Below, piece after piece: positions 179-52,233 of a DNA stretch of 64,000 nucleotides. Below the pieces are notes generated by a model. It ran no database searches and was not told the origin of the DNA. It was given only the letters and a program-made list of their open reading frames with translations. The translations under genes and the position numbers were made by a program. The stretch comes from Candidatus Heimdallarchaeota archaeon (GTDB lineage: Archaea; Asgardarchaeota; Heimdallarchaeia; Heimdallarchaeales; Kariarchaeaceae): assembly GCA_030149205.1 (NCBI GenBank), contig JASBSB010000001.1, positions 393,142-457,141 on the forward strand. Reading direction: 5' to 3'. Position 1 is the first letter of the stretch; the number at the start of each line of letters is the position of its first letter.

Positions 179-886
179 TTGATTGAAGAGAATTCATTAT
201 TTTTGGATACTACATCAGGTTCAACTGAAATTTTGTTAAGGTTTATCCATTTCTGGATGCAAAGAGATGACTCATCTGGTGTCATTGCTAGTTTAATGAA
301 ATTAGAAGAATCTTACAAAGATATGTACCTAATTAAAAATTTTGTTGATAAGTTCTCCAAATACAGTGAGAATAAGATTTTAGGAGAGTTTGAAGAATTA
401 TATAAATCCACTAACAAGTTTATTGAAAATTACAAATGGAAAGTTATGAGTATTATAGGTTCAAACAGACGCTGTTTAACATTTTCAAACAGCTTTTTTT
501 TACAGGAAACTCTACCTGTGTTACAGCCTGAAAAAGTCTATGTAACTAAGTCTAAACCAGGAGAGGAAGGGATCATTTTGAACAAAAAATTACTTGATTA
601 TTCACTCAACTCAGTCATGATCGATGACGTAGACCTCAGCCATTATTGTAAAAAGAACCTAATTGACTTTGTAATTGTTTCATGCGATGGTTATATTAAA
701 TCTCAAGGCTTTATCAACAAAATTGGAACGGCAAAACTTTTGAACCTAGCAGAAACTAACAATGTTGAGAGCTATGTCTTAACTCACCCATTAAAACTAT
801 TAAACACAAAGCCAAACAAACTAACTAACAGTCTAATGGAATGGGTTGATACATCGGATCTGAGATTGCTACGTTATATTGAATAA
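179..886 (+). CDS. eIF-2B alpha/beta/delta-like family protein (e2b2 / ribose-1,5-bisphosphate isomerase / MtnA-like fold); may be short at the N-terminus
   Basis: The C-terminal block IVSCDGYIKSQGFINKIGTAKLLNLAETNNVESYVLTHP matches the conserved G-A-D..NG.v.NKiGT..lAl.A....vp.yV segment of the eIF-2B family. ORF 4-186 upstream is in a different frame. Confidence 0.45.
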   Translation: MIEENSLFLDTTSGSTEILLRFIHFWMQRDDSSGVIASLMKLEESYKDMYLIKNFVDKFSKYSENKILGEFEELYKSTNKFIENYKWKVMSIIGSNRRCLTFSNSFFLQETLPVLQPEKVYVTKSKPGEEGIILNKKLLDYSLNSVMIDDVDLSHYCKKNLIDFVIVSCDGYIKSQGFINKIGTAKLLNLAETNNVESYVLTHPLKLLNTKPNKLTNSLMEWVDTSDLRLLRYIE

Positions 887-25790: not shown

Positions 25791-26269
25791 AAATAAGTAT
25801 TCTCATCTCAATTTCTGTTTATTTATTATTTCCGAAAGATAACATCAATATTCTATGTTGTGAAACTATCTAATTTTTTATTTTTGTTGTTCGATCTTTG
25901 CTATAGTTGTTGAGTAGTGAAATTTACTAAATTTGTTGCTCAATTTTTTTTTGTTAGAGATAAATTTTGAGTAACCTTAGCCATTTAATATATAATAATT
26001 TTAAATTTTAATCCTGTTGAATCTGGTCATCAAACATTTCAATAATTTTATAATTTTGTTAGACTAATACTTAAGTAAAATACAAAATGCGATTTTGACA
26101 AAAAGAGTTCAATTTGCCTTAAATCAATGTTGTTATAACCAAATTTCTATGTTGAAACATAAAGTGAATTGCTTTAAGAGTAAACAAGCCCTATTATGTC
26201 GAAATAAATTTATAATCAGATAATAACTCATTCAAATTTATTCATCCATCAATATTCTGGAAATAAAAT

Positions 26270-26881
26270 TTAAATTTTAACAGTTTCTATACAAACTATA
26301 ATTTTTTCGAACTCTTTGTAAATTTTATGACTTGAAGTTACAAATTCTAATAGTTCCTTGGATTTTTGTTCTAATTGAAATTCTGACGGATTGCCTTGAG
26401 CAAGGTGAAAATAATCTGTAACTAATTCATTAGCAGACGTAGTAGTTTGCTCTACAGCATCAATGACTGATGTTATCTTCCCAAGGCTAATTTTGCTGTA
26501 ATTTTTAATTCTGTCCATAAAAAGGTTAAACTTAAACCTATACTCATTAATCTTGGTATTAGCATTCAAATACTCTCTTTTAGACATTTTCATATTTTCC
26601 ACTACAAAATTTGATAACACCAGCTCATGGAATTGTGAAATTAACTTATACACCTCTATTAGCAAATCATTTTTTATTTCTTTTTCAGATTTTATTAATT
26701 GGAAATTTGAAATACCTAATTTTGCAAATTCCCATGTTAGATATATCAATAAAATATTGATATATAACCTCAATAAAAGTTCAATCATCATTCTATCAAG
26801 TATTTTCCAAATATAATAATCTAGTAAGATTGGGGTTATTGTAAAAATACTAAATACAGCAAAATACAATTTACTTTTCAT
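26270..26881 (-). CDS. hypothetical membrane-anchored coiled-coil protein (203 aa)
   Basis: Two N-terminal TM helices, then a helical K/E-rich region. Lies in an AT-rich low-density region. Confidence 0.35.
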   Translation of the reverse strand: MKSKLYFAVFSIFTITPILLDYYIWKILDRMMIELLLRLYINILLIYLTWEFAKLGISNFQLIKSEKEIKNDLLIEVYKLISQFHELVLSNFVVENMKMSKREYLNANTKINEYRFKFNLFMDRIKNYSKISLGKITSVIDAVEQTTTSANELVTDYFHLAQGNPSEFQLEQKSKELLEFVTSSHKIYKEFEKIIVCIETVKI

Positions 26882-27271
26882 AATTTAATTTTTTTTTATT
26901 AAGCTTATAAACTTACATTGTTAAAAAAAAATTGCTCTACCCGATCATTCGTAATTGAATTAATAATGTTTACATTTTTATATTATTATTCAGCAATTAC
27001 AAAGGAAAATTAATTTAGCTCTTGATTTTATCCTCTTTTCCTCTGTTTATAATACCCTTCAATTAATGGAGGGTTAACTAGAATTGTAAAACTCATACTA
27101 AGGTATAGGTCAAATCTATATCTAAAACAATTTATGTTGCGTTCATCGAAACTCAAAAATTATATTAATCAACCTTTAAAATATAAATTTTAGTTTAAAT
27201 TGAAAGAAGAGACTACATCAATGAAGGGCAACAACATCGTTAATATCCAGACATAAATTATTATCTGCATT

Positions 27272-28219
27272 TTATATCAAACTTTTACATTTATTTCCAA
27301 ATTTCTTTTTATTAAATTCCAAATAACCCCTCGTTTCTGGTTCTTCTAAAGATAATTTTGTTGTCGCTAAAACTTTAACTTGACTTGGTATTTTTGGAAT
27401 TCTGTAATCTATACCTTCAATCTTATCAATGTTAAATTTAGTTCCGGTACTAGTAATTTCTAAGAAATTCTTAAAACTATCGCTATCAAAAATATTTACT
27501 AACTGTTCAAAAAGCTCAGGAAAATTAATTTGTTTATTTAGTTTCTGAATTTTTATTCCAGCTCCTATTAAGGAAGATCTTTGGATACTTGGTTTATTAA
27601 TAGCTACTTCAAGTTGATTTCTAGCTTTAATTAGTTGAACTAATTCATCAGGAATAGATGTGAAAAACAAACGATCTATTCCAATATTTAAATCGAACAC
27701 TACATCATCCACTTCAAATTTCGAATAAGTTTGTTCCATTAACTTTACATCACGAATAGAACACATTAACCAATGTGATTCTATTTGATCGTTGGTTTTA
27801 TCTTTATCAATTGAACTCTGAACTTTAACTAATTCATCCAAGTATGTTGGAGATAATTTTTGACCAAAAGTAATACGGTATTTGCTTGCTTCTGGTATCA
27901 TTGAAACTGGAAATTCCCAAGTTTCATTTTTATCAATCCATTGATTATTATCTATGTCCTTAAAATTACCTGCTTCTAGTTTTGGTTTGACTGAAAAAAT
28001 ATCTTTCGACACAGCTAGTGTCCTTCCTTTGATTGTTGAATCATAAATAGGCCCCTCTAGTAAGTATGAGTAAATTGCTTGTTGATTTTTGTAATTAATT
28101 TGCATTGATTTGGCTTGTGGGTCTAATTTTTTTAAGTCATTCTGGAATTTTGGGGGAAGAGAGCTTAACCTTTTAGCTTCATCCCTAGCTTCCTTCCTTT
28201 TTTGTTGTCTACTTTTCAT
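27272..28219 (-). CDS. hypothetical protein (315 aa), third gene of the methyltransferase-led cassette
   Basis: Its ATG directly abuts the TAA stop of the upstream 359-aa gene (stop 28222-28220, start 28219-28217), suggesting translational coupling. Basic N-terminus. No recognised motif. Confidence 0.5.
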   Translation of the reverse strand: MKSRQQKRKEARDEAKRLSSLPPKFQNDLKKLDPQAKSMQINYKNQQAIYSYLLEGPIYDSTIKGRTLAVSKDIFSVKPKLEAGNFKDIDNNQWIDKNETWEFPVSMIPEASKYRITFGQKLSPTYLDELVKVQSSIDKDKTNDQIESHWLMCSIRDVKLMEQTYSKFEVDDVVFDLNIGIDRLFFTSIPDELVQLIKARNQLEVAINKPSIQRSSLIGAGIKIQKLNKQINFPELFEQLVNIFDSDSFKNFLEITSTGTKFNIDKIEGIDYRIPKIPSQVKVLATTKLSLEEPETRGYLEFNKKKFGNKCKSLI

Positions 28220-29299
28220 TTAAATTCCTCTTATATTCATTATCAGATCTTTATCTTCGAATTTGGGATTTTTAACCAAAAATTTTACCATCCCCGTTTT
28301 GTTTCTTCGATTATCTTGGACATCAACTGCAAACTCAATTGGCTCATACACATTTCCAAGGAGATCTTTATAGGTGAATTCGTAAATTAATTTATTAAGT
28401 GGGGTTTCCAGATCATTAGGTATAGTTGCGTAGGTTTCTCGAAGTGAAATGCGATCTGTGGGGTTTGTACTTGTGATTTCATTCATTACATTTGCTAACA
28501 TAACTCCTAACCTTTTGAGAAATTCACTTGATGGGATGTTAGCTATCCATTTATTAATCGTTATTTTCATTAATTCTTCATTTTCATCTTTAAATTTATT
28601 TCCAACCGCTATTTCGCCTATCTTTTTTGATACTCTTTTAAGGGTTTCTTCAAAATCTACTAACCGAGCACCGGAAATATCTTTTTCGTCTAATTTGTCA
28701 TCATTAGATTTACTTTGAAAATACCCTAAGTTATACATCTCTCTTATTAACGATTCTTCAACAGAATATGATTTGGAGATCAGTTGGCCAAGATGTGTTT
28801 TGACCTTGATTTCAGGTTTAACATCACCAAATCCACTATACTGCATTATAACAAAGAAATCAATTAGTGTATTGCTCTCTTCAAGAATTATTTTTTTTGT
28901 ATTATCTAATAATTTAATCTTAGGTCTAAATATTTGGATTAAAAATTTTCTGCTGTCAATAATTTTACTCCTATTAATTACCACAACCTCGAGGTATCTC
29001 TGATTTGCGAGATCCTCTGGAAGTTTAATAAATTTTAATTCTAAGCCAAAATAAATTGAATCAAGAAGAGAACTTGTAATACAATTTTTTTTTTCAATGG
29101 TATAATAACCTTCTGGGTCGATTGATTTAAGTAGGTCTTTGATTTCGTCAAATTCTAAATTCCAAAAATCTACTAATTCCAGATCCTCATCTAATTTAAT
29201 TTTTATGCTTTCTATATTTTTTGAATTTACCATTATACCAATAGGTATTTGTTCCTTTGGCAAACACCATTTTGGTATATTTACGAATTTTATACTCAA
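28220..29299 (-). CDS. hypothetical protein (359 aa), second gene of the methyltransferase-led cassette; candidate restriction/effector component
   Basis: Same strand, 125 nt downstream of the DNA methyltransferase gene. K/I/N-rich composition typical of the surrounding AT-rich island. No recognisable motif. Confidence 0.5.
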   Translation of the reverse strand: MSIKFVNIPKWCLPKEQIPIGIMVNSKNIESIKIKLDEDLELVDFWNLEFDEIKDLLKSIDPEGYYTIEKKNCITSSLLDSIYFGLELKFIKLPEDLANQRYLEVVVINRSKIIDSRKFLIQIFRPKIKLLDNTKKIILEESNTLIDFFVIMQYSGFGDVKPEIKVKTHLGQLISKSYSVEESLIREMYNLGYFQSKSNDDKLDEKDISGARLVDFEETLKRVSKKIGEIAVGNKFKDENEELMKITINKWIANIPSSEFLKRLGVMLANVMNEITSTNPTDRISLRETYATIPNDLETPLNKLIYEFTYKDLLGNVYEPIEFAVDVQDNRRNKTGMVKFLVKNPKFEDKDLIMNIRGI

Positions 29300-29424
29300 T
29301 CAAGTTTAGAACAATTAACTATTATAAGAATATTATCGACATTATTAAGACCAGAGTTAAAAACTTTATAACAGTCACAATTAAGGATATATGAAATGGT
29401 ATCTTTGATAAATTTTCCCAATTT

Positions 29425-37083: not shown

Positions 37084-37422
37084 TTGATACATATGTGGCA
37101 TACACTTGATGGATATTGGTACATGATGAATTATGCGTGGATGTGGATTTCAATGTATATCGTTGTAATCCTTACATTAGCGTTTATTAGTTCAAGAAGA
37201 GATGAGAACACGTTTTTATGGGTCTTACTTTTTATATTCTTCCCTATGATGTCTATTTTCGTTTATTTGATATATATAGTCATTCAGCAACCAGAAGAAT
37301 CTAAAATAACAACTACTCCGGAGACAAACCAAACAAACAATACTTCAAAGTACTGTTCTGAATGTGGGGCCATGAATCCAAGAATTGCGAAATTCTGTAC
37401 GGAATGTGGAACTACCTTCTAG
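37084..37422 (+). CDS. small membrane protein with C-terminal zinc ribbon
   Basis: Two TM helices, then KYCSECGAMNPRIAKFCTECGTTF. The C-x-x-CG...AKFC-x-x-CG arrangement matches the protein at 14352-15137. Confidence 0.4.
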   Translation: MIHMWHTLDGYWYMMNYAWMWISMYIVVILTLAFISSRRDENTFLWVLLFIFFPMMSIFVYLIYIVIQQPEESKITTTPETNQTNNTSKYCSECGAMNPRIAKFCTECGTTF

Positions 37423-37484: not shown

Positions 37485-39245
37485 ATGTTTTTTTACCCTG
37501 AACTAAGTTTAACTTACAGAATGAAAACTAGCGAAATAACAGGAAAGGGTTTAAATTATGAGAATATACCCCCGGTTTTAACTGAGGAAGAATACTCACC
37601 AAGGGCATTATTTTTAAATCAAAATGAAGAATTTAAAGTTCAAACTGATAAAGCCCATGTATTTTTAGTTTATAACAAATCGGACAGTTCTACTCCTTGG
37701 CAAATTTTGAAAAATTCGACATCCTTTCTACTCCGGGCTGAACAGGATGGAGAGGCTCTTTTCATCTTTCCTGAGACATTAACTCTAATTTTGGACCTTC
37801 ATCTTAATGGAACAACTAAATCCATTAGAACAACTTTTGATGCAACATTAATTGAAGTCATTGCTACGCTGTTTAAATCATCAACTCCCACCACAATAAT
37901 CAAAAATTTAACAGCCAAAATTAAGATGATTCTTGAAGGATATTTTATTAGCGAAACTCAAAAATTTGAGGAAATAACTCTGGATAGTCAATTTTCAATA
38001 TCAAATGAAATGCTGGATAAGATTGAGATGAAACTTAGTCTCTATGGTTTAAAACTACTCGCGATTGAGGAAGCACCTGTAGAAGAACAAGAATCTATAC
38101 TCCTTGTTGATTTTTATGGTGAAACCCCTGAAGAGCGAGAAGAGATCAAGCCTATTCAATTCATCCCTGAAGAAAAAATGGTGAACCATGAGCCTGAACT
38201 AACACAAGAAATAGAAAATGAGAAAAAAACACCGACTGAGAAACTTCATACGGTTCCTAAGGAAATATCAAAAGAAGATTCAACTAAAGTGGAAGAAAGT
38301 TATGAATTACCCTCTGCTCCAAAATCAGAATCAATGGAAGCAGTTATGTTATCTGATGGAAAGAATGAAGATCTGCATCTAGAAGTACCTACCGCTGGTG
38401 GAGAACAATCACTATTCGAAGAAGAAATTGTAGATCAACCACCTCCTCCAGTTCCAGAGCCTTCTCAAGTAAAGAAAAAAACACAGGCACCTAAACCCAA
38501 AGTATCAAGAAGAATGAGAGGGGGTACAGTAAAGGAGACTGAAGAAATCCCCTCAATTGAGGGTCTTGATTCTTCAGAAACATTGAATGAAGAACTTTTC
38601 CCAGAGAGATTGATGGAAGCAGGTTCACCGCTGACGTCGATAAAAAACATTTCATGTACTTGGTATAATCAAATGATTGTAAATAAGACCTACCCTATTT
38701 TGCTCAAGATCTCAGACAGGGAACAGGACAAAAAAAGAAAGATGTCATCATTTATATCAGGGGAACAAATCACTCAGGAGCATCTCTCAGTTAAATTTGA
38801 TCCTGATTTAGATATACAAATCAGGGCTGAGTTTCCAGGTTGTCTTGTGACACCTCTTGATCGCACATTCTCTCCTAAGGAGAAAGACGTAATGCTTCGC
38901 TTCTATGTTACCCCTTTAGTTAAGGGAAAAGTTGATGCATCAATCACATTTATTCAAAACGGTAAAACCGTCGATTCAATACCTTTGAATGGCAAAGTTG
39001 GAGATCATCGTGTAGCAAAAATTATTTCATCTGTAGGTGTTTTAGTAAGTGTACTTCCCTCCTTTTTTGCATTCTTGTTTGGGGTAACTGTTCAAGAATT
39101 TCTCAGCAAAAGGGTTGGTTCAGACTTTTCAGTTATTTGGAACATCGGAACAATCTTTGGTGGGTTATTTTTGATCTTGCTAGGATTGATCCTGTATAGG
39201 ATGGAGTATGAAAAGTCAAAGAGGAAGACGTATTTTGAAAATTAA
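37485..39245 (+). CDS. hypothetical protein with acidic/proline-rich central linker and C-terminal TM anchors
   Basis: 586-aa ORF with globular N- and C-domains. The linker is E/P/K-rich (PPPPVPEPSQVKKKTQAPKPK). Two C-terminal hydrophobic helices. Confidence 0.4.
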   Translation: MFFYPELSLTYRMKTSEITGKGLNYENIPPVLTEEEYSPRALFLNQNEEFKVQTDKAHVFLVYNKSDSSTPWQILKNSTSFLLRAEQDGEALFIFPETLTLILDLHLNGTTKSIRTTFDATLIEVIATLFKSSTPTTIIKNLTAKIKMILEGYFISETQKFEEITLDSQFSISNEMLDKIEMKLSLYGLKLLAIEEAPVEEQESILLVDFYGETPEEREEIKPIQFIPEEKMVNHEPELTQEIENEKKTPTEKLHTVPKEISKEDSTKVEESYELPSAPKSESMEAVMLSDGKNEDLHLEVPTAGGEQSLFEEEIVDQPPPPVPEPSQVKKKTQAPKPKVSRRMRGGTVKETEEIPSIEGLDSSETLNEELFPERLMEAGSPLTSIKNISCTWYNQMIVNKTYPILLKISDREQDKKRKMSSFISGEQITQEHLSVKFDPDLDIQIRAEFPGCLVTPLDRTFSPKEKDVMLRFYVTPLVKGKVDASITFIQNGKTVDSIPLNGKVGDHRVAKIISSVGVLVSVLPSFFAFLFGVTVQEFLSKRVGSDFSVIWNIGTIFGGLFLILLGLILYRMEYEKSKRKTYFEN

Positions 39246-39296: not shown

Positions 39297-40025
39297 TTGA
39301 AATTAGTGAAGCAAAACAAACTTAGGAACATAAATACATTATTTTTTGACTTAGATGGTACACTTTTAGATCTTTCAGATGAGAATTTTGAGAAAGTATA
39401 TGCCTATGAAGCTGCAATGATTTTTAAAGATATTATTGACCCAAAAATTTTCGTTAAGTTACTTATTGAAAGCACCGTTGAAATGATGAAAAGTCGAGGA
39501 GAGAAGTTACTGATTGATGTGTTCTATGAATTTTTTTGTCCAAAGGTTGGATTAAAAGAAGATGAGGTTCAGAATCGATTCTTGAGGTTTTACGAAACCT
39601 CATTTGATAAATTAAAGTTGGTGTCAAAAAGAATTAACGGAGTTCCTGACTTAATAAGGAAACTCAATGACAGAGGTTATAAGCTGGTTTTAGCAACACA
39701 ACCTTTCTTTTATGAGTTAGCAACCATTAAAAGAATAAGATGGGCAGGATTGGAACCTGATCAGTTCTTATATTTTACCCATATTGAAAATAGTAGTGTG
39801 GCAAAACCGAACCCCCTGTATTTTGAACAACTTGCAAACATCACCAAATCAAAACCTGAAGAAATTTTAATGATAGGGAATGACTACCTATATGACTTAT
39901 CAGCAAAGAAATTAGGCATTTCTACATGGATGACCCCTCAAAATCAATCAAATCTTGAGTACAAAGATAAAATGAGCCCAGATTTTGAACTTCCACTATT
40001 AGAACTCTTAGATTTCCTACCTTAG
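39297..40025 (+). CDS. HAD-superfamily hydrolase
   Basis: Motif I LFFDLDGTLLD near the N-terminus and a C-terminal G-N-D motif (MIGNDYLYDL), the HAD catalytic signatures. Confidence 0.65.
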   Translation: MKLVKQNKLRNINTLFFDLDGTLLDLSDENFEKVYAYEAAMIFKDIIDPKIFVKLLIESTVEMMKSRGEKLLIDVFYEFFCPKVGLKEDEVQNRFLRFYETSFDKLKLVSKRINGVPDLIRKLNDRGYKLVLATQPFFYELATIKRIRWAGLEPDQFLYFTHIENSSVAKPNPLYFEQLANITKSKPEEILMIGNDYLYDLSAKKLGISTWMTPQNQSNLEYKDKMSPDFELPLLELLDFLP

Positions 40026-40597
40026 ATGATTTCACTCTCAAACTCTTCTTCTAATTCTGAACTGGTAGATAGAAGCTGACCTAGATTTTCAAATATTTCA
40101 ATTAAGTTATCATCATTTTTTATTGAATATTCATAGAGAAAAATTTCATTCGACCAAGTCTTTGAGATTTTCTCCATCAATGACTTCACATCTGATATAC
40201 TAAAGTCAGCTTCATTAGTTAAATCAATCTTGTTAACAAGAAAAACCAAAATAGGAGACCCACAATGCTTTTCGACCTGTGGGAGCCAGTCATTAACTGC
40301 GTTTAATGATACAAAATTGGTTAAATCGATCAAAAAAATTACAACAGAAGTTCCTCTTAAATACATTTCAATCAAAGATTTGTAAGAAAGTTGTGATCCA
40401 AGTTCCCAAATGCTAAACAGAAAACTATTACCTGCGTATTGCATTGGAAAACTTTCGATTTGCACTGGAGTGGTGGGGATATATTTCTCAGAAAATTTCT
40501 GATAGATGAGTTTGTTAATTAAACTAGTTTTCCCGGTTCTGGAACTACCTAATAACAAAATCTTGAATATATATTGAGTGTCCACCATTCGAACCAT
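40022..40597 (-). CDS. Ras-superfamily small GTPase (Arf/Rab-like)
   Basis: G1 LLGSSRTGKTSL, a conserved Thr in the switch-I region (PTTPV), G3-like WELGSQ (compare WDTAGQ / WDVGGQ) and G4 NKIDL. Confidence 0.75.
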   Translation of the reverse strand: MVRMVDTQYIFKILLLGSSRTGKTSLINKLIYQKFSEKYIPTTPVQIESFPMQYAGNSFLFSIWELGSQLSYKSLIEMYLRGTSVVIFLIDLTNFVSLNAVNDWLPQVEKHCGSPILVFLVNKIDLTNEADFSISDVKSLMEKISKTWSNEIFLYEYSIKNDDNLIEIFENLGQLLSTSSELEEEFESEII

Positions 40598-40661
40598 TCA
40601 TTATATTCTTTAAAATAATTTATATTATAATACACAAAATAATTTAGTTCTTATGAAATTA

Positions 40662-42371
40662 TCATTTTGCATAGTTTAAGATTGATTTTTCAACTTTAAA
40701 CTCTTCTGGAAGTTTTTCTAAATTCAAAATCCTCATGACTGAGGAATCAAGCGCTGTATGGTTACGAGCACTTAAAAGCTGGCCTGCCCTCATCATCAAT
40801 GTCCTTCTTTTTACGGTTTCGTCTCCTTTTTTAGGATAATCCATTACCCTGGTTCGGGTTGATCCTATCACTGCAACTAACCTATTTTCATCTCCTGAGA
40901 AGGTAAGAATAACCTTTTCATTATCATTGATTGAAAATACAATTTCTTCGGGTTTAAATTGAACTTCACTTGAACTAAGCTCACTTAACACAGATTCTAA
41001 TTGGACATCAAGACCATCTAAAATTGAGATCAGTTTTGTAGGGTTAATATTGTCAGTAATTTCATAAATAGAAGTTTGTCCACTGGTATAATCTGATTCC
41101 AAGGCACCATCTAACACATATTCACTTTCTCTAATCACGTCAAAGGTTTCAAATAAAGGAATATCAGATACTGCCTCAACTGATAATGAGTCAGCAAGAG
41201 AATTAGGCAACATATTTCGTTTTAATTTAGAAACCTGTACTTTTGTAGTAGCTCTGGTGTTTCCAGTTGGAGTGCTGTCCTCTTTTTTGAACATCCCTAA
41301 TAACTTTGCGATGAACCCCTTTTTCTGAGGAGCTGGGGGCTTAATGCTGGATTGTGTTTCATATGTATTCTCCTTTTGCTCAACCTCAATAGTAAACTCC
41401 TTTAACCAACCCTCAGCATCACTATCAACGAGTTCTAGAATACTTGTCATTTGGGTCGCATTTACCCCATCAACCTTAGTTGTTAAAATCATTGAGGGTT
41501 TAGAGCTAACATAGGGATTCCTAACTAGAATTAAATGAGAGTTATTTTCATCAAGTAAGTTCCCAGATAAGAATTGAAGTTTATAGTTTGAATCAAGTTT
41601 GGAAAGGTGAGAGTGAAGCGATTCAAGAGAACTATTACTAGGCTGTTTGTCTATATTTGAGAAACTGGAAAAAACACTTTTCCATTTTCCAGACAGGATC
41701 GCTTTTGTATCAAGATAGTTAGGGATTATAGCGTCCTTTTTCTCTTCAATCTGGTTTTCCTTGGTATATGAAATAAATTTTCTCCGACTAATTTCAACCA
41801 GATCTGCTACACTATTCACCTTGACAGATTTAGGAGAATCTTCATATTCCAAACGTAAATCCGTCCTTCTAATTGCAGCAAACAGAACCGCTAATTCCCA
41901 AAAACCGAAGTCTGAAGATTCTAAAAATTCTCTGGTATAATACAAAAACGGAGCTATAAAATTATAATGAATTCTACCATATCTGATATCCATCGGGAGT
42001 CCACGACTTGCTAAAAAAAGATCATTTTTTCGAATTTTTGAACCAAGATAATACCCTAGAGCCATTGTTTCCATGACTTTCTTGGAACTCTCATTTCTGG
42101 TCTCTAGGCCTATCTTGAAGAGTTCGAGCACACAGCTTCTTCTTTCCTCATCACTTGCACCAATTAATTCTGAAGCAGTAACTATGAAATCTGCAAGAAA
42201 TAATGCCCTTTGGGCACTTTCATCACTTTTTGATAACCCATGTTTTTCAGCAAATTCAATTAGCTCAGGAGACATGGATTCATACCTTTTCAGCCTAGTA
42301 TCTAAGTCGAATTCTGAATTAACATTCTCTCTAAGTTCACCTATCATTTGATAATTAGGAATCAAATCCAT
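40662..42371 (-). CDS. large protein with C-terminal roadblock/LC7 (MglB-like) domain; probable GTPase partner
   Basis: Lies 64 nt upstream of the GTPase on the same strand. The C-terminal LISILDGLDVQLESVLSELSSSEVQFKPEEIVFSINDNEKVILTFSGDENRLVAVIGS follows the roadblock pattern. The N-terminal ~400 aa are unknown. Confidence 0.45.
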   Translation of the reverse strand: MDLIPNYQMIGELRENVNSEFDLDTRLKRYESMSPELIEFAEKHGLSKSDESAQRALFLADFIVTASELIGASDEERRSCVLELFKIGLETRNESSKKVMETMALGYYLGSKIRKNDLFLASRGLPMDIRYGRIHYNFIAPFLYYTREFLESSDFGFWELAVLFAAIRRTDLRLEYEDSPKSVKVNSVADLVEISRRKFISYTKENQIEEKKDAIIPNYLDTKAILSGKWKSVFSSFSNIDKQPSNSSLESLHSHLSKLDSNYKLQFLSGNLLDENNSHLILVRNPYVSSKPSMILTTKVDGVNATQMTSILELVDSDAEGWLKEFTIEVEQKENTYETQSSIKPPAPQKKGFIAKLLGMFKKEDSTPTGNTRATTKVQVSKLKRNMLPNSLADSLSVEAVSDIPLFETFDVIRESEYVLDGALESDYTSGQTSIYEITDNINPTKLISILDGLDVQLESVLSELSSSEVQFKPEEIVFSINDNEKVILTFSGDENRLVAVIGSTRTRVMDYPKKGDETVKRRTLMMRAGQLLSARNHTALDSSVMRILNLEKLPEEFKVEKSILNYAK

Positions 42372-45647: not shown

Positions 45648-47789
45648 TTGGTACAATCATTGTCAATTCAAATTGAAAATATTAGTAGCAGAATTCAACA
45701 ATTTCTAATAATAGTTTTAGCGGGAGTCTATACCACAATACAGTCCCTTGTTCCTTCAACTATTAGAATACTTCCGGGTTTGGATATAACAAATCAAGGA
45801 TTTGGACTATTTGTTCTTGCAACAGGGGCAATGATATTTGGAAAGGGAGTTGGAGCAGGTTCCGCAGGTTTAGGTGTGATTTTTGACCAGTTTAAAGTTG
45901 TTCTTGATGGGTCCTCTGTCCCTAACTTGAATCTTGGGCTATTGGTCGGAACTGTAAGTTTAGGACTAGGTGCATGGTTAACAGGATTCCTTGAAAACGG
46001 TCGTACTGGAGATTTTGTTTCTTCAAGTTTTAAAGGTGTCATGTCAAAGGCGGAAATTCTTAAAGTGGGGAGAAAAACCTTGGTTTCAATAGTTGGCTTA
46101 GGAATCACCTCAAACTTTACGTATGCGTTTGGAGCTCAATTAATAGAAGGTGGAAACATCTTTGGAGCTATTACCTATTTTTTGACAACTTTCTTAGAAG
46201 ACAGCTTTGTGCTCATATTAACAGTTCCAATATCACTTTTAGCATTTGATATTACAAATGTTTACAATGAAAAAAAATCAAATTTTATAGAGCAATTAAA
46301 TCAAAAGGTGGATTATAAAATCGAGGTTTCACAATCTGCTGAAATTTTGAAGGTTTCGTTACCTGAGACTTCCTTAGTTCAAGGGAAGTGGACACCAGTT
46401 GTGGTTGAGTTTATGAATCCATCAACTGAAAAAAAGCAATATCAGGTTGAAGCAGTATTTACCACAAAATTTTATCCTCACACTGACAAAACACCTCAAC
46501 TCAAACCTGGTGAGGGATGGAAACAGACATTTTTCGTTCTCCCCAGTAAGCAGAGTTCAGTTTACGGGAGAATTAGGATAACCAGTAACAACGACATACA
46601 GTACAAATCATCAAACCCTGATGAGTCAATTGTTGAAATTACCGCTAATTCAAGAGACCCCAACACCATAATTGGTTCACTAATAGGCTTAAGTGGTGTA
46701 AATTTTGGGATTCTTGGAATTTCTGTTATTTGGGATCAGGTTTTATCATTTTTTTCTAACCCTGAATTGCTCTTATCTCAATTTCAATCTACGGTTTCAA
46801 CATTGTCTGAAGTAATTTTTGCTGAAATCTTATTATTCATTTCATTGTTATTATGGACAGTGTTTCGTACAAAGAAGGAGAAAACCCAATTTTCACAAAA
46901 GATTAGTTTTTCGAGTGATTTAGATGACCAGCTAATTCAATCGCTTAAGGCAAATTCAATAAGGATAATGCTCAAAAAATATGGAAATGGGCTAACAAGC
47001 GTTTTTCGGGTGCTTATTGGAATAAGCAGTTTAGGGTTAATCATATTTTTGGGAAACCAGGGGTATCAAGTAATTACAAATCCCACGTACACTGTTACTA
47101 ACCAAGAGTTGCTTTTTGGTTTAATTTTAGGGATGATAATTTCTTGGGTGCTCGGATTCAGAGGTTTACAGATAATTACTGAGATGAATCTCAAAAATGC
47201 AGCATATAATAATAACCCTGATGACTTTGTTCAAGAGTTCAAACCTGTTGGGGATATAAATGAAAATGAACCCAATAATTTTCTATTTAAGGTGATTAAT
47301 ACTTCTGATTTACCAGGAATAAGAATCAAATTTGAATCAACAGATTCAATTGCTCCACCTTTAATAGAACTACACATAGAACCTGGTGAGATAGCTCAAT
47401 TTAAGGTCGTAGTCACTCCTAATACAGGAAATCATAAAATTTTAGCATTAGCTTATCCGCTGTTTGATAAAAAGAAAAAATATGTGAATTTTGATGAATC
47501 TGAACCTTTTGCTAAACAGGAGCTTAGTTTTGCAGTAAATTCAAAAGGAGTCCTGGGGATGTCAAAAAAACAACAATCCCAACTTAAAGGTATTACTGCT
47601 TTGTTGACTGGTTTTACTGGATTACTGGCAGTTATCAATCAGATAGTCCCAGGAAGCAATAATTTTACGATAATTCTGGATAACTTACCTGCGCTACTGA
47701 GTTTGCAGATCCCGATTTTGGGAGCATATTTCAGCTTGAATTCTACGCTAAAAAATTGGCTAATTAAATCAGGAGAAAATGACTTATGA
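45648..47789 (+). CDS. large polytopic membrane protein with central beta-rich (Ig/CARDB-like) extracytoplasmic segment; first gene of the vWA operon
   Basis: Multiple hydrophobic helices at both ends and a ~250-aa hydrophilic beta-rich middle. Its stop overlaps the start of the next gene (ATGA). Confidence 0.45.
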   Translation: MVQSLSIQIENISSRIQQFLIIVLAGVYTTIQSLVPSTIRILPGLDITNQGFGLFVLATGAMIFGKGVGAGSAGLGVIFDQFKVVLDGSSVPNLNLGLLVGTVSLGLGAWLTGFLENGRTGDFVSSSFKGVMSKAEILKVGRKTLVSIVGLGITSNFTYAFGAQLIEGGNIFGAITYFLTTFLEDSFVLILTVPISLLAFDITNVYNEKKSNFIEQLNQKVDYKIEVSQSAEILKVSLPETSLVQGKWTPVVVEFMNPSTEKKQYQVEAVFTTKFYPHTDKTPQLKPGEGWKQTFFVLPSKQSSVYGRIRITSNNDIQYKSSNPDESIVEITANSRDPNTIIGSLIGLSGVNFGILGISVIWDQVLSFFSNPELLLSQFQSTVSTLSEVIFAEILLFISLLLWTVFRTKKEKTQFSQKISFSSDLDDQLIQSLKANSIRIMLKKYGNGLTSVFRVLIGISSLGLIIFLGNQGYQVITNPTYTVTNQELLFGLILGMIISWVLGFRGLQIITEMNLKNAAYNNNPDDFVQEFKPVGDINENEPNNFLFKVINTSDLPGIRIKFESTDSIAPPLIELHIEPGEIAQFKVVVTPNTGNHKILALAYPLFDKKKKYVNFDESEPFAKQELSFAVNSKGVLGMSKKQQSQLKGITALLTGFTGLLAVINQIVPGSNNFTIILDNLPALLSLQIPILGAYFSLNSTLKNWLIKSGENDL

Positions 47790-49585
47790 GTAAAAAACTT
47801 CTTTCTGTACTAACCTTAACCTTTATTCTGTTGGGAGCAGGGTTTACATATTATTCATTTACTACCCCAACAATTGACTTAAGTCCAGAATTTGCGGCTC
47901 AGGCAATTCAATTAACTTCTGGAGCGAACTTACTCTTTGGAGGAAATGCTTTGAAACTACTAAACAAATACGAGGGAATTGGAAAAATAACCAAGGATTA
48001 TCTTACTGATGTATTTAAATTTAATATGAAAGGGAAAAAGAACACACTTTATTACCAAAACTTAAACAATTTGATTCCAGGATATTCCAATCCCCCTAAC
48101 TTTGCATTTGACCCCACATACAATGAAAGCATATCTACTCAAGGGTTAGGATTCAACATTGCACCTTCATCTTTTATTAAAAGTTATCAAAACAAATTCC
48201 TCTCAACACCGATTGAAAGTACAGATCCTTTATCAAAGATCCCAGATAGTATGAAAGAAAATATAAATAAAACATCAAGACTGTTTGATGTTTGGAAACA
48301 AACTTTAACAGGAAATACCTCCTATTTTAATTTTGTATCAACTTCTGGCTACTCATTAAATTACCCGTTTTTCTCTCTCCCTAAGATTTATGATGGAAGA
48401 AATGAATCTTTCTACAACTCTGCGATAATTGGACAAAAAGATCTTGTAATAGTGATTGATAGATCTGGATCATTGAACAAAGATACTTTTACTGCACTTA
48501 AGAACTCAATTAAGTCAATCATAAACACCCTATCTCCATCAGACAGATTCAATATTTTAACATTTTCAGATCATGTTTCTGTTTTTTCGAATAGTTTGAG
48601 CAGTGCAACTATTAGTACAAAAATTTTAGCAGAGAAATATATAGATAGAATTAGATTAGGTGGGCTTTCAGACATTGGGATGGGATTTACTTCGGGATTA
48701 AAAATTCTGACAGATTTTGGATATCAGAGGAATAAGCGATTGTTTCTCACCTTTTCAGATGGAAAACCTACTTCAGGTGTAATTCAAAATGATTCATTAA
48801 TCCAAGAGATTGTTAGTGCAAATGGTGGAGCTAAAGCAACCCCAATATTTTACGGGATTACCAAAAATCCTAATAATGAAATGTTTACCTCCTTGGCAAA
48901 TCAGATGGGAGGGTTCTATATTAACACAAATACCACGAGTAAACTACTTAACTTGGTTCCCAACTATAATAAGCTAATAAACAATATTACTTCTGAAAAC
49001 AAAATTTGGAGTACTCCCTTTGTAAGCTCTATTAACCACAATATTTTCTCTAACTTAAGTTTTGCAATAAATTATGCTGGTCAACACTTTGGAGTTTTTA
49101 ACATCCAAGTTAAGCTATCTGAATTTTTGGAGAGTTTACAGAAGACAAAGTTGTATAATTCCCAGACTAACTTTATAATCAACACTGGAGGATACACCTT
49201 TGCTCATCCTATATTTGAAAGTCTCCAATTAAAAGACAGAATTACAAACAACCTTCAACAACCAATCGAAAATTTTACGCTAACCTCGGCCGATTTCAAA
49301 GGGATGTTGACGGATTTAGCCAAAAATAACTATAAGACCAAAATAGTTCAGAGTAATAATTTAACTAAGTTTGTGATTTCCTTATCACCGCTTGGACAAA
49401 CAGGATTGGTTTCAGGAACTATCATCCCATTAACTGAAATAATCAACCAAAACATCTTAGGTTCACTTTCTGGTCACAGACCAAATTTTGAAGGAATGTA
49501 TCTTTCCTTTGCTATTGCTGTAACCGTTGGAATAATTATCATTTTGTTAAGTAGCAGAATTCTGAAGGAGGAAACAAAACAATGA
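47786..49585 (+). CDS. von Willebrand factor A (vWA) domain membrane protein
   Basis: N-terminal signal/TM. MIDAS-type motif LVIVIDRSGSLNKDTF...SDRFNILTFSDHV...FSDGKPTSG. C-terminal TM helix. Start and stop codons overlap both neighbours. Confidence 0.65.
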   Translation: MSKKLLSVLTLTFILLGAGFTYYSFTTPTIDLSPEFAAQAIQLTSGANLLFGGNALKLLNKYEGIGKITKDYLTDVFKFNMKGKKNTLYYQNLNNLIPGYSNPPNFAFDPTYNESISTQGLGFNIAPSSFIKSYQNKFLSTPIESTDPLSKIPDSMKENINKTSRLFDVWKQTLTGNTSYFNFVSTSGYSLNYPFFSLPKIYDGRNESFYNSAIIGQKDLVIVIDRSGSLNKDTFTALKNSIKSIINTLSPSDRFNILTFSDHVSVFSNSLSSATISTKILAEKYIDRIRLGGLSDIGMGFTSGLKILTDFGYQRNKRLFLTFSDGKPTSGVIQNDSLIQEIVSANGGAKATPIFYGITKNPNNEMFTSLANQMGGFYINTNTTSKLLNLVPNYNKLINNITSENKIWSTPFVSSINHNIFSNLSFAINYAGQHFGVFNIQVKLSEFLESLQKTKLYNSQTNFIINTGGYTFAHPIFESLQLKDRITNNLQQPIENFTLTSADFKGMLTDLAKNNYKTKIVQSNNLTKFVISLSPLGQTGLVSGTIIPLTEIINQNILGSLSGHRPNFEGMYLSFAIAVTVGIIIILLSSRILKEETKQ

Positions 49586-52233
49586 ACAATAATGTAGGGA
49601 ACAATGACCCAGAAGAGAACAATAAAACTGAACCCAAAGGTAAAAAAATTGAAGCCTCATCAGAAGGGGAAAAGATTGATGAAACTACAGAGGAGCCTTC
49701 AAAACAAAATGCTGGAATCGAAACTAATACAAACGCTTCTTCAGAACCTCTTGACAGTTCAGACAGTAATACAGAAACGATAAAAGACTCACCTATAATT
49801 AGCGACACTAACCAACCGACTGATTCGAAGAAGGATGTAAGCAAGTTAGATCAAGAACATGATAATGAAGAAAAGAATCAAACTGAACTTAAGGGAGGGG
49901 ATGAGAGTACTCCATCATCACAGAATGATAAAAACTCCACTGGAGGGTCGTTCTTACAAAGCCTTGGTTCAGTAGGCAATATTTTACCTTTTCAGGTTAG
50001 AAAGTCAAAGCCTGAAGATTTAAGTCCGCAGGATCAAATAGAGGCTGCGATTAACGAAACAAAACAAAATGTACCTAAATTCTACTCAAAGACAAATTTT
50101 TCAGAAAAAACCAGGTTTCAGAAATTCAGAATAGCTACATATAAGTCTCTCTCTCTCTCGTTAATACCATTATTGATTATCTTGATCGGATTATCTTTTA
50201 ATTTGCATGCGATTCAAGGAACAGTCTTTGTCGACAACACACGTCAATACTCGACAAACTCTATTCAATATTCTAACAAATTAGCAACGCAACTAAATAA
50301 TGAATACTCAAGCTTCATAAGTTCTATTGAGAGTGAATTTCGGAACCTAAAATTTAACATTGCGAGCGATCCAACAACCTATGATATCCAAAGTTTTTCG
50401 GTTAATGAAACCGGTGCCACTCCGAACCCTCAGTTCAGCACGAAATATAACAAGATTGTTGATTATAGTGTATCTGCTTGGCAATTGTTAGCAAAACACA
50501 ATAGAACGAAATCTGTAAATGATACAGTACAACTAACTGCCCAATTTGACCCATACTTTATGACCACATACAATAAAGTTAAGGAAATTCTCTGGATAAG
50601 ATTAATTCTCGATAACGGGGTTGTACGGACTTACCCTCATTTACCAGATAATTCCTCAAATACTAACTTCCAAGCACTTCAGTGGTTCAATAAAACTAAA
50701 TCAGCATTCAGTTTCGATACATTTGTAACAGGCCTAGAAGTTGATAATATTACATCAAAATTGATTTATTCAATAACAAGTCCATATTTTAAGAATGGAA
50801 TAAAATTGGGTGTTTTGCAAGCTTCAATTGATGTAGTAGAACTAAAACAACAATTTAATTTGTTAAAGGGTAAAGGGATTACCCCCTTTTTGATGACAAA
50901 GGCTGGCCAAGGAGTCTATCATCCGAAACTTTCACTTAAGCAATTTGGTTGGAATAATAATGAGTTAAACCAGAGTATCTTAAAAATTGACCCAGTTATC
51001 AATGAGATAAATCGAACTAAAAATATCATTGGGTTAACAAACCAATTAAATGGGAGTGTTTCAGTAAATACTGTAGGTGTAACATATTGGATATTTCCGA
51101 TTACTAACACTGGTCAAGTTTTAGGACTTTACTTAGAACTTTCAACCACTCCAGTAAAGTCTCAATTCGATAGTTTTCAATTACTTGCACTCCCAATTGG
51201 AGTAGCTGTTATCCTTCTAGTTTCTATTGTTGGATTACAATTACAATCTGGATTAATTAAAATAGATAATCTTGAAAAATCGCTTAAAAGGTTTAGAAGG
51301 GCTACTAAAATTGAAGGGATATCAAATAGATTAAGGGATACCCTTACTCAAATGAGTACAGAAAATATAATTGACAAAACTGGATCAAGGGCAGAGAAGT
51401 TAATCAAAGAGAAAGGAAAAGATGCAAGAGAAAATGTGGAAGGTGAAATTTCAAGAGGTTTGGAAAAGGTGTCTTCAAACATTGATAAAGGTAAATCTAT
51501 GATCCTTGAAGAGGAAGATACCAATCTTGTTGAGGTAATTGAAAAGGATAAAATTTTGACAAAAATATTAGAATCGCTGGAAGAAAATCCGTACTTATTC
51601 CTTCAAAACAGGATAAAAATGAAGAATATCAATATTGAGGATATAAAAAATGAAAACTATTCCTCTTTAAAAAGCCTAGTTACAGGTGCAGAGAAGCTTT
51701 TAATAGCATTAATTGTAGGGCGAAGAATTGATATAGCCAAAATTTCTGATTCCTGTGAGATGAATGGAGAACAGCTAAGCGGGTTTTTCACCAGCCTCCC
51801 TCTAAATCTTGGAATCACGTTGTCAGAAGATCAAAAATCGATCATGGTAGAACAAAAATTGTTATTGGAAAACATTGAATCATTTACTTTGTACTTCAAT
51901 AAATTCCTCAAAAACCCTAAAAAATACCTTAAACTGTCAACTAGTAATAATGTTGAAAAAATAGATAAAGTTAAATCTCAAATAGAAAAGTTCTATTCCA
52001 CAATCCAAGAAAGAAACTCCATTTCATTAGATGAACTTTCAGAGATATTTCAACTCCATAAGAAACAAATAATTGAAATTTTTAGTCAGTTGAGTTCCGA
52101 CAAAAAATTTGGAATTAATTTAGAAGAAAAAACTTTGAGTATTGATGAAGATAAATTCAAATCTAACCTCTTGGACTTTGTTAAAAAATTCACTTTGATA
52201 GTAGTCACAAGATACTCTTTTATCTCCGCTTAA
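49582..52233 (+). CDS. large membrane protein: acidic low-complexity N-tail, two TM helices around an extracytoplasmic domain, coiled-coil C-terminus; third gene of the vWA operon
   Basis: The N-terminal ~150 aa are D/E/S/T/N-rich. TM at about aa 190-215 and aa 535-560. The C-terminal 300 aa are K/E-rich helical. Confidence 0.45.
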   Translation: MNNNVGNNDPEENNKTEPKGKKIEASSEGEKIDETTEEPSKQNAGIETNTNASSEPLDSSDSNTETIKDSPIISDTNQPTDSKKDVSKLDQEHDNEEKNQTELKGGDESTPSSQNDKNSTGGSFLQSLGSVGNILPFQVRKSKPEDLSPQDQIEAAINETKQNVPKFYSKTNFSEKTRFQKFRIATYKSLSLSLIPLLIILIGLSFNLHAIQGTVFVDNTRQYSTNSIQYSNKLATQLNNEYSSFISSIESEFRNLKFNIASDPTTYDIQSFSVNETGATPNPQFSTKYNKIVDYSVSAWQLLAKHNRTKSVNDTVQLTAQFDPYFMTTYNKVKEILWIRLILDNGVVRTYPHLPDNSSNTNFQALQWFNKTKSAFSFDTFVTGLEVDNITSKLIYSITSPYFKNGIKLGVLQASIDVVELKQQFNLLKGKGITPFLMTKAGQGVYHPKLSLKQFGWNNNELNQSILKIDPVINEINRTKNIIGLTNQLNGSVSVNTVGVTYWIFPITNTGQVLGLYLELSTTPVKSQFDSFQLLALPIGVAVILLVSIVGLQLQSGLIKIDNLEKSLKRFRRATKIEGISNRLRDTLTQMSTENIIDKTGSRAEKLIKEKGKDARENVEGEISRGLEKVSSNIDKGKSMILEEEDTNLVEVIEKDKILTKILESLEENPYLFLQNRIKMKNINIEDIKNENYSSLKSLVTGAEKLLIALIVGRRIDIAKISDSCEMNGEQLSGFFTSLPLNLGITLSEDQKSIMVEQKLLLENIESFTLYFNKFLKNPKKYLKLSTSNNVEKIDKVKSQIEKFYSTIQERNSISLDELSEIFQLHKKQIIEIFSQLSSDKKFGINLEEKTLSIDEDKFKSNLLDFVKKFTLIVVTRYSFISA

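Follow-up and report, generated by a model that had tools for sequence, protein, structure and literature searches.

The small GTPases of Asgard archaea number in the dozens, and these organisms also have many proteins of the roadblock and longin kinds. Stand-alone Rab- and Ras-like GTPases are represented, for example, by Thor-Rab and, in MK-D1, by 35 single-domain GTPases (Tran et al. 2024, PMC10933270), and roadblock domains are likewise numerous in these organisms, where they make up 40 asCOGs (PMC12962969). Assignments of regulators to GTPases in Asgard archaea are nevertheless largely lacking, because linkage between the genes concerned is uncommon (Tran et al. 2024, PMC10933270), and a real linked pair would therefore offer a testable regulator-GTPase case. 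We here consider a possible pair of this kind, consisting of a small GTPase gene and the gene of a large protein proposed to end in a roadblock domain, within a 64-kb stretch of DNA that was analysed as a whole (hereafter, the window).

The two same-strand ORFs of 191 and 569 aa described in the initial annotation are present with exactly the coordinates and lengths claimed for them (Table 1). The GTPase ORF lies 64 bp downstream of the 569-aa ORF, and a spacer of this length is compatible with read-through co-transcription. The GTPase gene is the last of its transcription unit and converges on a HAD gene, while the flanks of the pair as a whole consist of unrelated housekeeping genes (CorA, an α/β-hydrolase, a methyltransferase and the HAD gene). 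The gene pair is real and a functional module is unproven; the reading that we prefer, with a probability of roughly 0.55, is that the two genes evolve independently and have become neighbours by chance in this lineage, rather than forming a conserved two-gene module.

Table 1 Coordinates (window positions) of the two genes, the spacer between them and the domains and motifs of their products
Feature	Position	Strand	Basis or remark
569-aa protein gene	40662..42371	-	ORF; upstream gene of pair
All-helical N-terminal domain, residues ~1-205	41757..42371	-	AF2 full-length model, pLDDT mostly 65-90
Middle α/β domain, residues ~206-326	41394..41756	-	AF2 secondary structure, topology alone
Disordered charged linker, residues ~327-407	41151..41393	-	pLDDT 26-37
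Amphipathic basic motif in linker, residues 352-364 (GFIAKLLGMFKKE)	41280..41318	-	Conserved; helix 353-361 in AF2
Roadblock-like C-domain, residues ~408-569	40665..41150	-	AF2 domain model and Foldseek
64-bp A/T-rich spacer	40598..40661	-	All-A/T TATA-like tract, no Shine-Dalgarno
191-aa GTPase gene	40022..40597	-	ORF; single-domain Ras/Rab-like small GTPase
G1/P-loop GSSRTGKT, residues 17-24	40526..40549	-	Aligned with Ras G10-S17
Degenerate G3/switch II start W-E-L-G-S-Q, residues 64-69	40391..40408	-	Rab6, H-Ras, Arf1 and MglA alignments
G4 NKID, residues 122-125, guanine-specificity motif	40223..40234	-	Invariant N/K/D columns

The 191-aa protein is a member of the Ras superfamily. Its match to the Ras profile (PF00071) spans the whole G domain (residues 12-174) at 87.5 bits, well above the curated cut-off of 21.6 (E 9.2e-25), and is followed in Pfam by Roc (2.7e-21), Arf (1.2e-15) and Gtr1_RagA (8e-8). 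The NCBIfam model TIGR00231 (small_GTP) gives 71.4 bits against a cut-off of 42.5 (7e-20), and the best matches among PDB sequences are Rab6B, Rab21 and Rab1A, with E-values of about 1e-17 to 1e-18. Narrower identities fared less well. In Rag/Gtr proteins the G domain continues into a roadblock domain at the C-terminus, and this identity was rejected because the window GTPase is single-domain and scores 32.4 bits with Gtr1_RagA versus 87.5 bits with Ras. MglA was rejected on a BLASTP match of 21.9 bits over 31 residues and on a G3 that reads E-L-G-S-Q. Roadblock proteins are known to regulate GTPases of the MglA and Rag types, and by these scores the protein belongs to neither. Rab sensu stricto was also rejected, given a C-terminus (EEEFESEII) that contains no Cys for prenylation and the absence of RabF1 to RabF3; stretches resembling RabF4 and RabF5 (YLRGT and FLIDLT) are present on inspection of the Rab6 alignment. 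The tail of the protein is acidic, and no amphipathic helix is found at its N-terminus. A word-indexed search across 5.8 billion proteins, in which 100 candidates were scored, brought up no close relative, and none was found in JGI metagenome contigs. Most likely, and with the same confidence as the independent-genes explanation of which this forms part, the protein belongs with the stand-alone Ras/Rab-like GTPases that evolve fast and are numerous in Asgard archaea.

Alignment of the GTPase against H-Ras, Arf1 and MglA, and also against Rab6, together with the ORF translation, confirms the motifs originally quoted for it (G1 GSSRTGKT(S), G3 WELGSQ and G4 NKID), and both its Ras-superfamily membership and the atypical state of its G3 are upheld by Pfam, NCBIfam and the motif alignment. 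When the alignment was checked for missing nucleotide-binding residues, G1, G2 (the switch-I Thr, T42), G4, G5 (S-I-K) and the catalytic Gln (Ras Q61, here Q69) were all found intact, while G3 is degenerate, being off at both of its defining positions (Ras D57 is E65 and Ras G60 is S68). The DxxG signature, with its Mg-coordinating Asp and γ-phosphate-sensing Gly, is replaced by E65-L-G-S68. Since it is a profile homologue with a non-canonical switch II, we class the protein as a divergent member whose catalysis may be altered. With G1, G2, G4 and G5 intact it should still bind guanine nucleotide, and the substitutions at E65 and S68 suggest altered kinetics, with a switch II cycle and hydrolysis that are probably impaired or partner-dependent. 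One could go further and regard the protein as a pseudo-GTPase, nucleotide-free or locked in one state and structural in role, such that neither gene would take part in switch-type signalling. The replacement of both defining DxxG residues would fit such a role, and orphan status is consistent with fast evolution; however, the D to E change is conservative, and retention of the P-loop, switch-I Thr, NKxD, S-x-K and catalytic Gln points to ongoing selection for nucleotide binding, and so we consider a pseudo-GTPase very improbable.

The 569-aa protein belongs to an unannotated family with lengths of ~570-640 aa, and has no match in Pfam, NCBIfam, PDB sequences or PADLOC, in agreement with the earlier view that its N-terminal ~400 aa are uncharacterised. 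The family comprises 82 representatives at 50% identity (50 at E<=1e-30), and its labelled homologues all derive from Asgard MAGs, nearly all of them Heimdall-, Hod- or Kariarchaeota, a distribution that points to an Asgard archaeon as the source of the window; the nearest full-length homologues of the window protein are only ~35% identical to it. Homologue loci occur in 13 different genome assemblies (labelled Heimdall-, Hod-, Kari-, Hermod- or Promethearchaeota, or unclassified), one locus each, and the family is apparently single-copy across the genomes sampled. In the helical N-terminal domain the most conserved motifs of the family are R29-Y30, A56..D61-F, S67-E, D74-E-x-R77 and G124, and a Foldseek search with the full-length AF2 model found no fold match for this domain. 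For the middle domain, AF2 predicts a β-β-α-β-β-β-α arrangement, which is the longin/roadblock-like order; V-I-P-N and A-D-E-I-N(304)-V motifs are conserved here, and no sequence kinship with the C-terminal domain was found.

The linker is poorly conserved, varying in length and composition across the family, and the conserved motif within it has the consensus K-x-G-F-F-x-[KR]-[ILV]-x-x-[LIF]-F-G-K-K, usually followed by a K/R-rich tract. A strict regular expression recovers this motif in 26 of 34 members, the remainder carrying visible variants, and in P0009 and P0011 it draws sub-threshold matches to Pfam FtsA_C (13.6-18.6 bits, against a cut-off of 27.4). The motif is a candidate helix for membrane targeting or docking, and may tether the protein to a membrane.

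At its C-terminus, the 569-aa protein was said to carry a recognisable roadblock/LC7 domain. By sequence it does not: none of the 34 family members matches Robl_LC7 (PF03259) or a longin family in Pfam, even at E<=5, no roadblock or longin protein was recovered among PDB sequences by domain or full-length profile searches, and hhalign against DYNLRB1 gives a probability of at most 2%, with 0.1% in one comparison. The predicted structure, however, lends moderate support to a roadblock-like fold. For residues 398-569, the AF2 model (pLDDT 88.3, pTM 0.84) has the order α1-β1-β2-α2-β3-β4-β5-α3-α4-β6, which includes the complete roadblock topology α1-β1-β2-α2-β3-β4-β5 (H9-17, E21-30, E35-40, H47-69, E79-83, E89-96, E100-107), and F-D411-x-x-R414-E415, P-E-E476 and R-R522-T-L-x-M-R are conserved in the domain. 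Dynein LC7/roadblock chains are its top Foldseek matches in the PDB (prob 0.96-0.99, E about 5e-3, TM 0.4-0.5), including 7kzm_I (prob 0.99, TMt 0.53) and 8glv_AK (E 5e-3, prob 0.96), both verified as chains of this kind. Below them rank Fuzzy, a GATOR1-RAG chain, a Ragulator subunit and EGOC. The topology of the model thus agrees with a roadblock/LC7 fold, whereas the Foldseek significance is modest, with no PDB match at E<=1e-3.

PAS and GAF structures are interleaved in the same Foldseek list, and the C-terminal domain might instead be a PAS/GAF-type small-molecule sensor, which would make the 569-aa protein sensory or regulatory, unrelated to GTPase control, and its position beside a GTPase gene coincidental. 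The β-β-α-β-β-β core is indeed common to PAS, GAF, roadblock and longin domains. In both Foldseek lists, PAS-GAF phytochrome and LOV-PAS structures take up a large share of the entries, with E-values close to those of the roadblock matches, and the lack of a roadblock signal at the sequence level would also fit. We nonetheless think a sensor unlikely, given that LC7 chains rank first (prob 0.89-0.99 versus 0.3-0.66; TMq 0.27-0.35 versus 0.21-0.28), that the domain has the roadblock order, with an N-terminal helix ahead of β1-β2 and a single long helix from β2 to β3, and that Pfam PAS or GAF matches are found in 0 of 34 members. Longin-type GAPs of the FLCN/SMCR8/NPRL2 class, among them the Asgard longins of PMC12290439, are marked by a GP motif in the β1-β2 loop and an arginine finger. 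This identity was rejected, as the family consensus has no GP motif there in either the middle or the C-terminal domain; at the partially conserved Arg of the 'YLRG' stretch, the window protein has Ser.

Our linkage survey included 26 homologue loci, 15 of them extending at least 4 kb downstream, and 5-6 kb were inspected. A small GTPase was found within 5-6 kb of the partner homologue at none of the 26 loci, nor at any of the 15 with at least 4 kb downstream; both Kari-labelled loci end before the downstream gene. Conserved adjacency of the MglA/MglB type is therefore absent (0 of 15 informative loci), and the neighbours that do recur at homologue loci (MFS transporters, HpaB, Sir2 and an HTH protein) include none common to the window. 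Since none of the related genomes examined has the pairing, comparison lends no support to a conserved GTPase-regulator module, although the nearest homologues are too distant to show whether the pair is kept in the family or genus that the window comes from. Moreover, since the partner is conserved across orders and the GTPase is without detectable orthologues, the two do not co-evolve as a unit.

The spacer was compared with all other upstream regions of the window. Genes separated by gaps of at most 1 bp have a GGAGG-like Shine-Dalgarno sequence upstream, while a TATA-like tract at -34 to -24 precedes many of the spaced genes; the GTPase gene has such a tract, composed entirely of A/T, at -32 to -22 from its ATG, and no Shine-Dalgarno sequence precedes it in the spacer. 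The spacer is probably the promoter of the GTPase gene itself, from which the GTPase would most likely be transcribed independently of the 569-aa gene. Taken with the unconserved pairing, the missing orthologues and a GTPase of neither MglA nor Rag type, the TATA-like tract and absent Shine-Dalgarno sequence leave the initial annotation's eukaryote-like GTPase-regulator module unsupported.

A lineage-specific GTPase-regulator or -effector pair is a possible, though doubtful, alternative, in which a dimer of the C-terminal domain would bind the Rab/Ras-like GTPase as a GAP/GEF platform or membrane receptor and might, by analogy with MglB-MglA or Ragulator-Rags, offset the defective switch II. 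The same-strand adjacency, short spacer and terminal position of the GTPase in the transcription unit could all be accounted for in this way, as could the roadblock-like fold, and a degenerate G3 suggests the need of a helper; roadblock and longin dimers are also recurrent GTPase platforms (PMC10933270). Additionally, small GTPases are scarce in the sampled DNA (one in the window and none in the 26 homologue loci), and so a chance landing beside a roadblock-like gene is not very likely; we put the chance of a same-strand GTPase directly downstream of any single gene of this kind at roughly a few per cent. Yet a pairing missing from all 15 informative loci, a partner conserved across orders beside a GTPase with no detectable orthologues and of neither MglA nor Rag type, a likely separate promoter with no Shine-Dalgarno sequence before the GTPase, and a roadblock assignment based on modest fold-search statistics all speak against such a pair.

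Under the explanation that we prefer, that of two independent genes, the 569-aa protein may be a peripheral-membrane scaffold made up of the helical N-terminal domain and two α/β domains joined by the flexible linker. Its roadblock-like domain would probably dimerise as roadblock domains do, and the amphipathic, lysine-flanked linker helix could tether it to a membrane or a partner. Roadblock proteins usually serve as GTPase/NTPase platforms, and if the 569-aa protein is one, its client would be encoded elsewhere in most genomes. As the linkage is not conserved, the pair is not citable as a module without biochemical evidence. Each gene is of interest nonetheless: the 569-aa protein represents an unannotated family, so far found only in Asgard (mostly Heimdall-group) MAGs, whose roadblock-like domain was missed by sequence methods and is set in a new multidomain context with a probable membrane-targeting helix, making the family an added candidate among Asgard GTPase-platform proteins, and the orphan GTPase, with its unusual E-x-G-S-Q switch II, is a subject for biochemical study.

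Among described systems, the GTPase resembles the stand-alone Asgard GTPases in its single G domain of ~190 aa, its best sequence matches to eukaryotic Rabs and its lack of a prenylation Cys, and these GTPases form a highly expanded, fast-evolving set of paralogues; it differs from them in its G3 (E-L-G-S-Q instead of D-T-A-G-Q) and in having no close relative detected. The C-terminal domain shares the predicted α-β-β-α-β-β-β topology of the roadblock/LC7 superfamily (DYNLRB, MglB, LAMTOR/Ragulator and Rag C-terminal domains; PF03259), and its best structural matches are LC7a/LC7b and then the GATOR1-RAG chain 6ces_C, the Ragulator subunit and EGOC. Unlike members of that superfamily, it has no sequence-profile similarity, bears an extra C-terminal α-α-β extension, ends a multidomain protein of ~570 aa rather than standing alone at ~100 aa or being fused to a GTPase, and comes from a family with no conserved GTPase neighbour. 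As in the MglA-MglB polarity module, a roadblock-fold gene adjoins a gene for a small Ras-like GTPase whose G3 is atypical; however, the G3 of MglA is T-V-P-G-Q and the similarity amounts to 22 bits, the partner is five times the size of MglB, and the adjacency is not conserved. The linker motif recalls amphipathic helices of the FtsA/MinD type in being a short conserved helix with basic flanks in a disordered setting, its sub-threshold FtsA_C matches aligning to the end of that profile, but it is internal, between folded domains rather than C-terminal, and membrane binding is a prediction.

Finally, the tri-longin RabGEF subunits (Mon1, Ccz1, Fuzzy and Inturned) offer a parallel in their tandem longin/roadblock-type α/β domains and in the Rab-like GTPase next door. 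Here there are two such domains rather than three, plus a helical N-terminal domain, with no sequence similarity and no paralogous partner subunit seen. Matches of the full-length model to 8jbe_C, 9rs9_B and 7q3e_B are weak and non-significant (E 0.05-0.5, TM at most 0.2), and the C-terminal domain matches Fuzzy (7q3e_B) at E 0.02 with prob 0.85. It is conceivable, if quite unlikely, that the family consists of membrane-tethered tandem longin/roadblock proteins akin to these subunits, and that a Rab-like client, dependent on the platform through its crippled switch II, was captured in this genome; if true, the pair would be a prokaryotic prototype of the membrane-localised RabGEF-Rab pair.

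The pairing of the 191-aa GTPase gene with the 569-aa partner gene is not conserved among the genomes compared. Both minus-strand ORFs occur where the initial annotation had placed them, separated by an A/T-rich spacer of 64 bp, yet its reading of the two as a GTPase-regulator module finds no support in the neighbourhoods of related genomes. We compared 26 homologue loci, 15 of which extend at least 4 kb downstream of the partner gene, and in none of these 15 did phmmer searches with the window GTPase (relaxed thresholds, positive control run) detect a small-GTPase-like ORF; against PDB, this query picks up 895 GTPase sequences. A search for a P-loop plus NKxD motif found no small GTPase in the first 17 partner loci, and the gene annotations of L001 and L002 are consistent with this. 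More generally, Asgard GTPase genes tend to lie outside operons with roadblock, longin or TRAPPC3 genes (PMC10933270), and roadblock domains abound in Asgard archaea, where they form 40 asCOGs, and are common among prokaryotes generally (PMC12962969).

The genes around the pair encode CorA (a Mg2+ transporter, immediately upstream of the partner gene), an alpha/beta-hydrolase, a methyltransferase and a HAD hydrolase, and none of the neighbours that recur in Hod/Heimdall partner loci (MFS transporters, HpaB, Sir2 and an HTH protein) occurs near it. In four loci labelled as Hod-, Hermod- or Promethearchaeota, a transporter of MFS type (~560 aa) directly follows the partner homologue on the same strand; in L002 an MFS gene lies upstream. 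With CorA in the window, transporters thus recur close to the partner gene. Window and L002 also each carry a B12-binding/MeaB (G3E GTPase)/methylmalonyl-CoA mutase fusion, ~6.5 kb and ~3 kb from the partner gene respectively, which may represent residual synteny; L002 contains no small GTPase.

Coordinates of features in the window, the partner protein and homologue loci
Feature	Position	Strand	Basis or remark
Partner gene, 569 aa	40662-42371	-	ORF
GTPase gene, 191 aa	40022-40597	-	ORF
Partner all-helical domain	residues 1-205		AF2 model
Partner alpha/beta domain, b-b-a-b-b-b-a order	residues about 223-326		AF2 model
Partner disordered linker	residues 319-414		AF2 model, pLDDT below 40
Short helix inside linker	residues 353-361		AF2 model
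Amphipathic linker motif GFIAKLLGMFKKE	41280-41318, residues 352-364	-	kept at same position in homologues P0002-P0067
Partner C-terminal alpha/beta domain	C-terminus		AF2 model
Partner/MFS loci	L009 7874-9550; L010 7804-9495; L012 7747-9495; L013 5034-6713		
B12-binding/MeaB/mutase fusion, 1123 aa	30734-34105	+	
Similar fusion in L002	L002 6422-9359		
Three-gene operon	45648-52233	+	4-bp overlaps
Three consecutive ORFs (203, 315, 359 aa)	26001-29300	-	no Pfam match
112-aa membrane protein	37084-37422	+	terminal zinc-ribbon (CSECG...CTECG); precedes 586-aa gene
586-aa protein	37485-39245	+	acidic/lysine-rich low-complexity centre, hydrophobic C-terminus; no Pfam family

We favour, with a probability of roughly 55% for the mechanism as a whole, the explanation that the two genes are independent and would be transcribed separately. 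Where translational coupling in the window is clear, at gaps of -4 to +1 bp, a GGAGG-type Shine-Dalgarno sequence precedes the gene; a comparison with other upstream regions in the window found none ahead of the GTPase gene. An all-A/T TATA-like tract lies there with its centre 22-32 nt before the ATG, as in many spaced window genes. Given this tract and the missing Shine-Dalgarno sequence, a promoter of its own with a short or absent leader is suggested, if weakly in so A/T-rich a genome. The gene closes its transcription unit, since its 3' end overlaps the convergent HAD-hydrolase gene by 4 bp.

Small GTPases are sparse in the sampled DNA, the window having a single one and the homologue loci having none, and for this reason chance adjacency is not very probable; our rough estimate that a single gene would fall beside a roadblock-like protein is a few per cent. 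This would favour a recent, lineage-specific functional pairing, but coincidence becomes more likely if any PAS-like alpha/beta domain would have prompted the same reading. Such a pairing is tenable because the Kari-labelled partner loci are truncated and none of the homologue loci sampled comes from a genome closely related to that of the window; we nevertheless consider it rather unlikely.

G+C content is ~34% throughout the window and does not shift at the gene pair; at 26-28 kb it falls to 0.26, and this region, with its three consecutive minus-strand ORFs lacking a Pfam match, could be foreign or fast-evolving DNA. The operon at 45648-52233, tightly packed and with GGAGG-type Shine-Dalgarno sequences, encodes a 713-aa multi-pass membrane-like protein and an 883-aa protein, both lacking a Pfam match; its remaining product, of 599 aa, is a VWA protein in which one region weakly resembles dCache. 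Eight of ten additional large ORFs scanned had no Pfam match, and the 64 kb contain no tRNA genes and no Rfam families at gathering threshold.

Pfam, NCBIfam, PADLOC and the PDB sequences gave no match to the partner. Its N-terminal part is indeed uncharacterised, as initially described. A word-indexed search recovered four relatives (31-35% identity, one labelled Kariarchaeaceae), and a profile search run exhaustively over 1.84 billion cluster representatives returned 82 homologues, 50 with E<=1e-30, most of these measuring 560-640 aa. Thirteen loci came from a one-genome-per-species scan and nine from metagenome contigs; all labelled loci are Asgard MAGs, mostly Heimdall-, Hod- or Kariarchaeota (Hermodarchaeota and Promethearchaeota, one each), unclassified archaea supply three, and each genome retrieved has a single locus. 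Such a distribution suggests that the window itself belongs to a Heimdall-group Asgard archaeon. In the family alignment, conservation is high over the N-terminal ~340 aa and is found again in a C-terminal domain of ~170 aa; the charged linker between them varies. The full-length AF2 model (pLDDT 70, pTM 0.63) predicts an alpha/beta domain at the C-terminus. This domain, previously annotated as roadblock/LC7, is roadblock-like in its predicted fold but goes undetected by sequence methods.

One short amphipathic motif (K-x-G-F-F-x-K/R-[ILV]-x-x-[LIF]-F-G-K-K) stands out in the linker, which shows no conservation elsewhere. All family members have this motif, usually with a lysine-rich tract after it, and it persists in members of only 17-21% identity; a distant subfamily in that range (P0047-P0051, P0057, P0062 and P0067) retains the whole architecture as well. 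In two members, a sub-threshold Pfam FtsA_C match falls exactly on the motif and aligns with the profile end, the site of the FtsA membrane-targeting helix. The motif is a candidate peripheral membrane anchor or docking helix. The partner would be a conserved, probably membrane-associated scaffold of Heimdall-group Asgard archaea, its C-terminal domain probably dimerising and perhaps offering a platform to an NTPase whose gene lies elsewhere. That it is instead a membrane-tethered tandem longin/roadblock platform related to tri-longin RabGEFs, with a captured Rab-like client, seems to us distinctly improbable. The architecture of the partner family, with its roadblock-like domain, was not described in the papers searched.

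The small protein is a Ras-superfamily GTPase, as first annotated, matching Pfam Ras (9.2e-25, 87.5 bits), Roc, Arf (57.9 bits) and, more weakly, Gtr1_RagA (32.4 bits), together with TIGR00231 small_GTP; its best solved-structure matches among PDB sequences are Rab6, Rab21, Rab1/Ypt1 and Sec4 (about 1e-15 to 1e-18). An MglA-like identity was rejected (21.9 bits over 31 residues), as was a Rag-like architecture, the protein being a single domain. Its sequence contains neither a prenylation Cys nor an N-terminal amphipathic helix. Alignment to H-Ras, Arf1 and MglA, reference sequences serving residue numbering only, shows that the P-loop (G17-S-S-R-T-G-K-T24) is intact and that the switch-I Thr (T42), G4 (N122-K-I-D125), a G5-like S-I-K and the catalytic Gln (Q69) are present. 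G3 is atypical, as had been noted, reading E65-L-G-S68-Q69, so that neither the Asp that coordinates Mg (Ras D57) nor the Gly that senses the gamma-phosphate (Ras G60) is kept. The protein probably binds guanine nucleotide. Judged against established Ras biochemistry, such as the behaviour of G60 mutants, its switch II is probably altered, and it would act as a stand-alone, fast-evolving Ras/Rab-like switch with altered kinetics.

Neither a word-indexed search of 5.8 billion proteins (limited to 100 word-sharing candidates) nor one of JGI metagenome contigs yielded a close relative; the GTPase is alone in its 90% cluster, and the window contains no paralogue. We assign it to the fast-evolving, stand-alone Ras/Rab-like GTPases that are typical of Asgard archaea. 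The pattern closest to its G3 is the D-x-G-G-Q of Arf/Rag, here with D replaced by E and the second G by S. MK-D1 encodes 74 small GTPases, of which 35 are single-domain and mostly Rab-like (PMC10933270), and among the known Asgard proteins of this stand-alone Ras/Rab-like kind the window GTPase is a new, divergent member.
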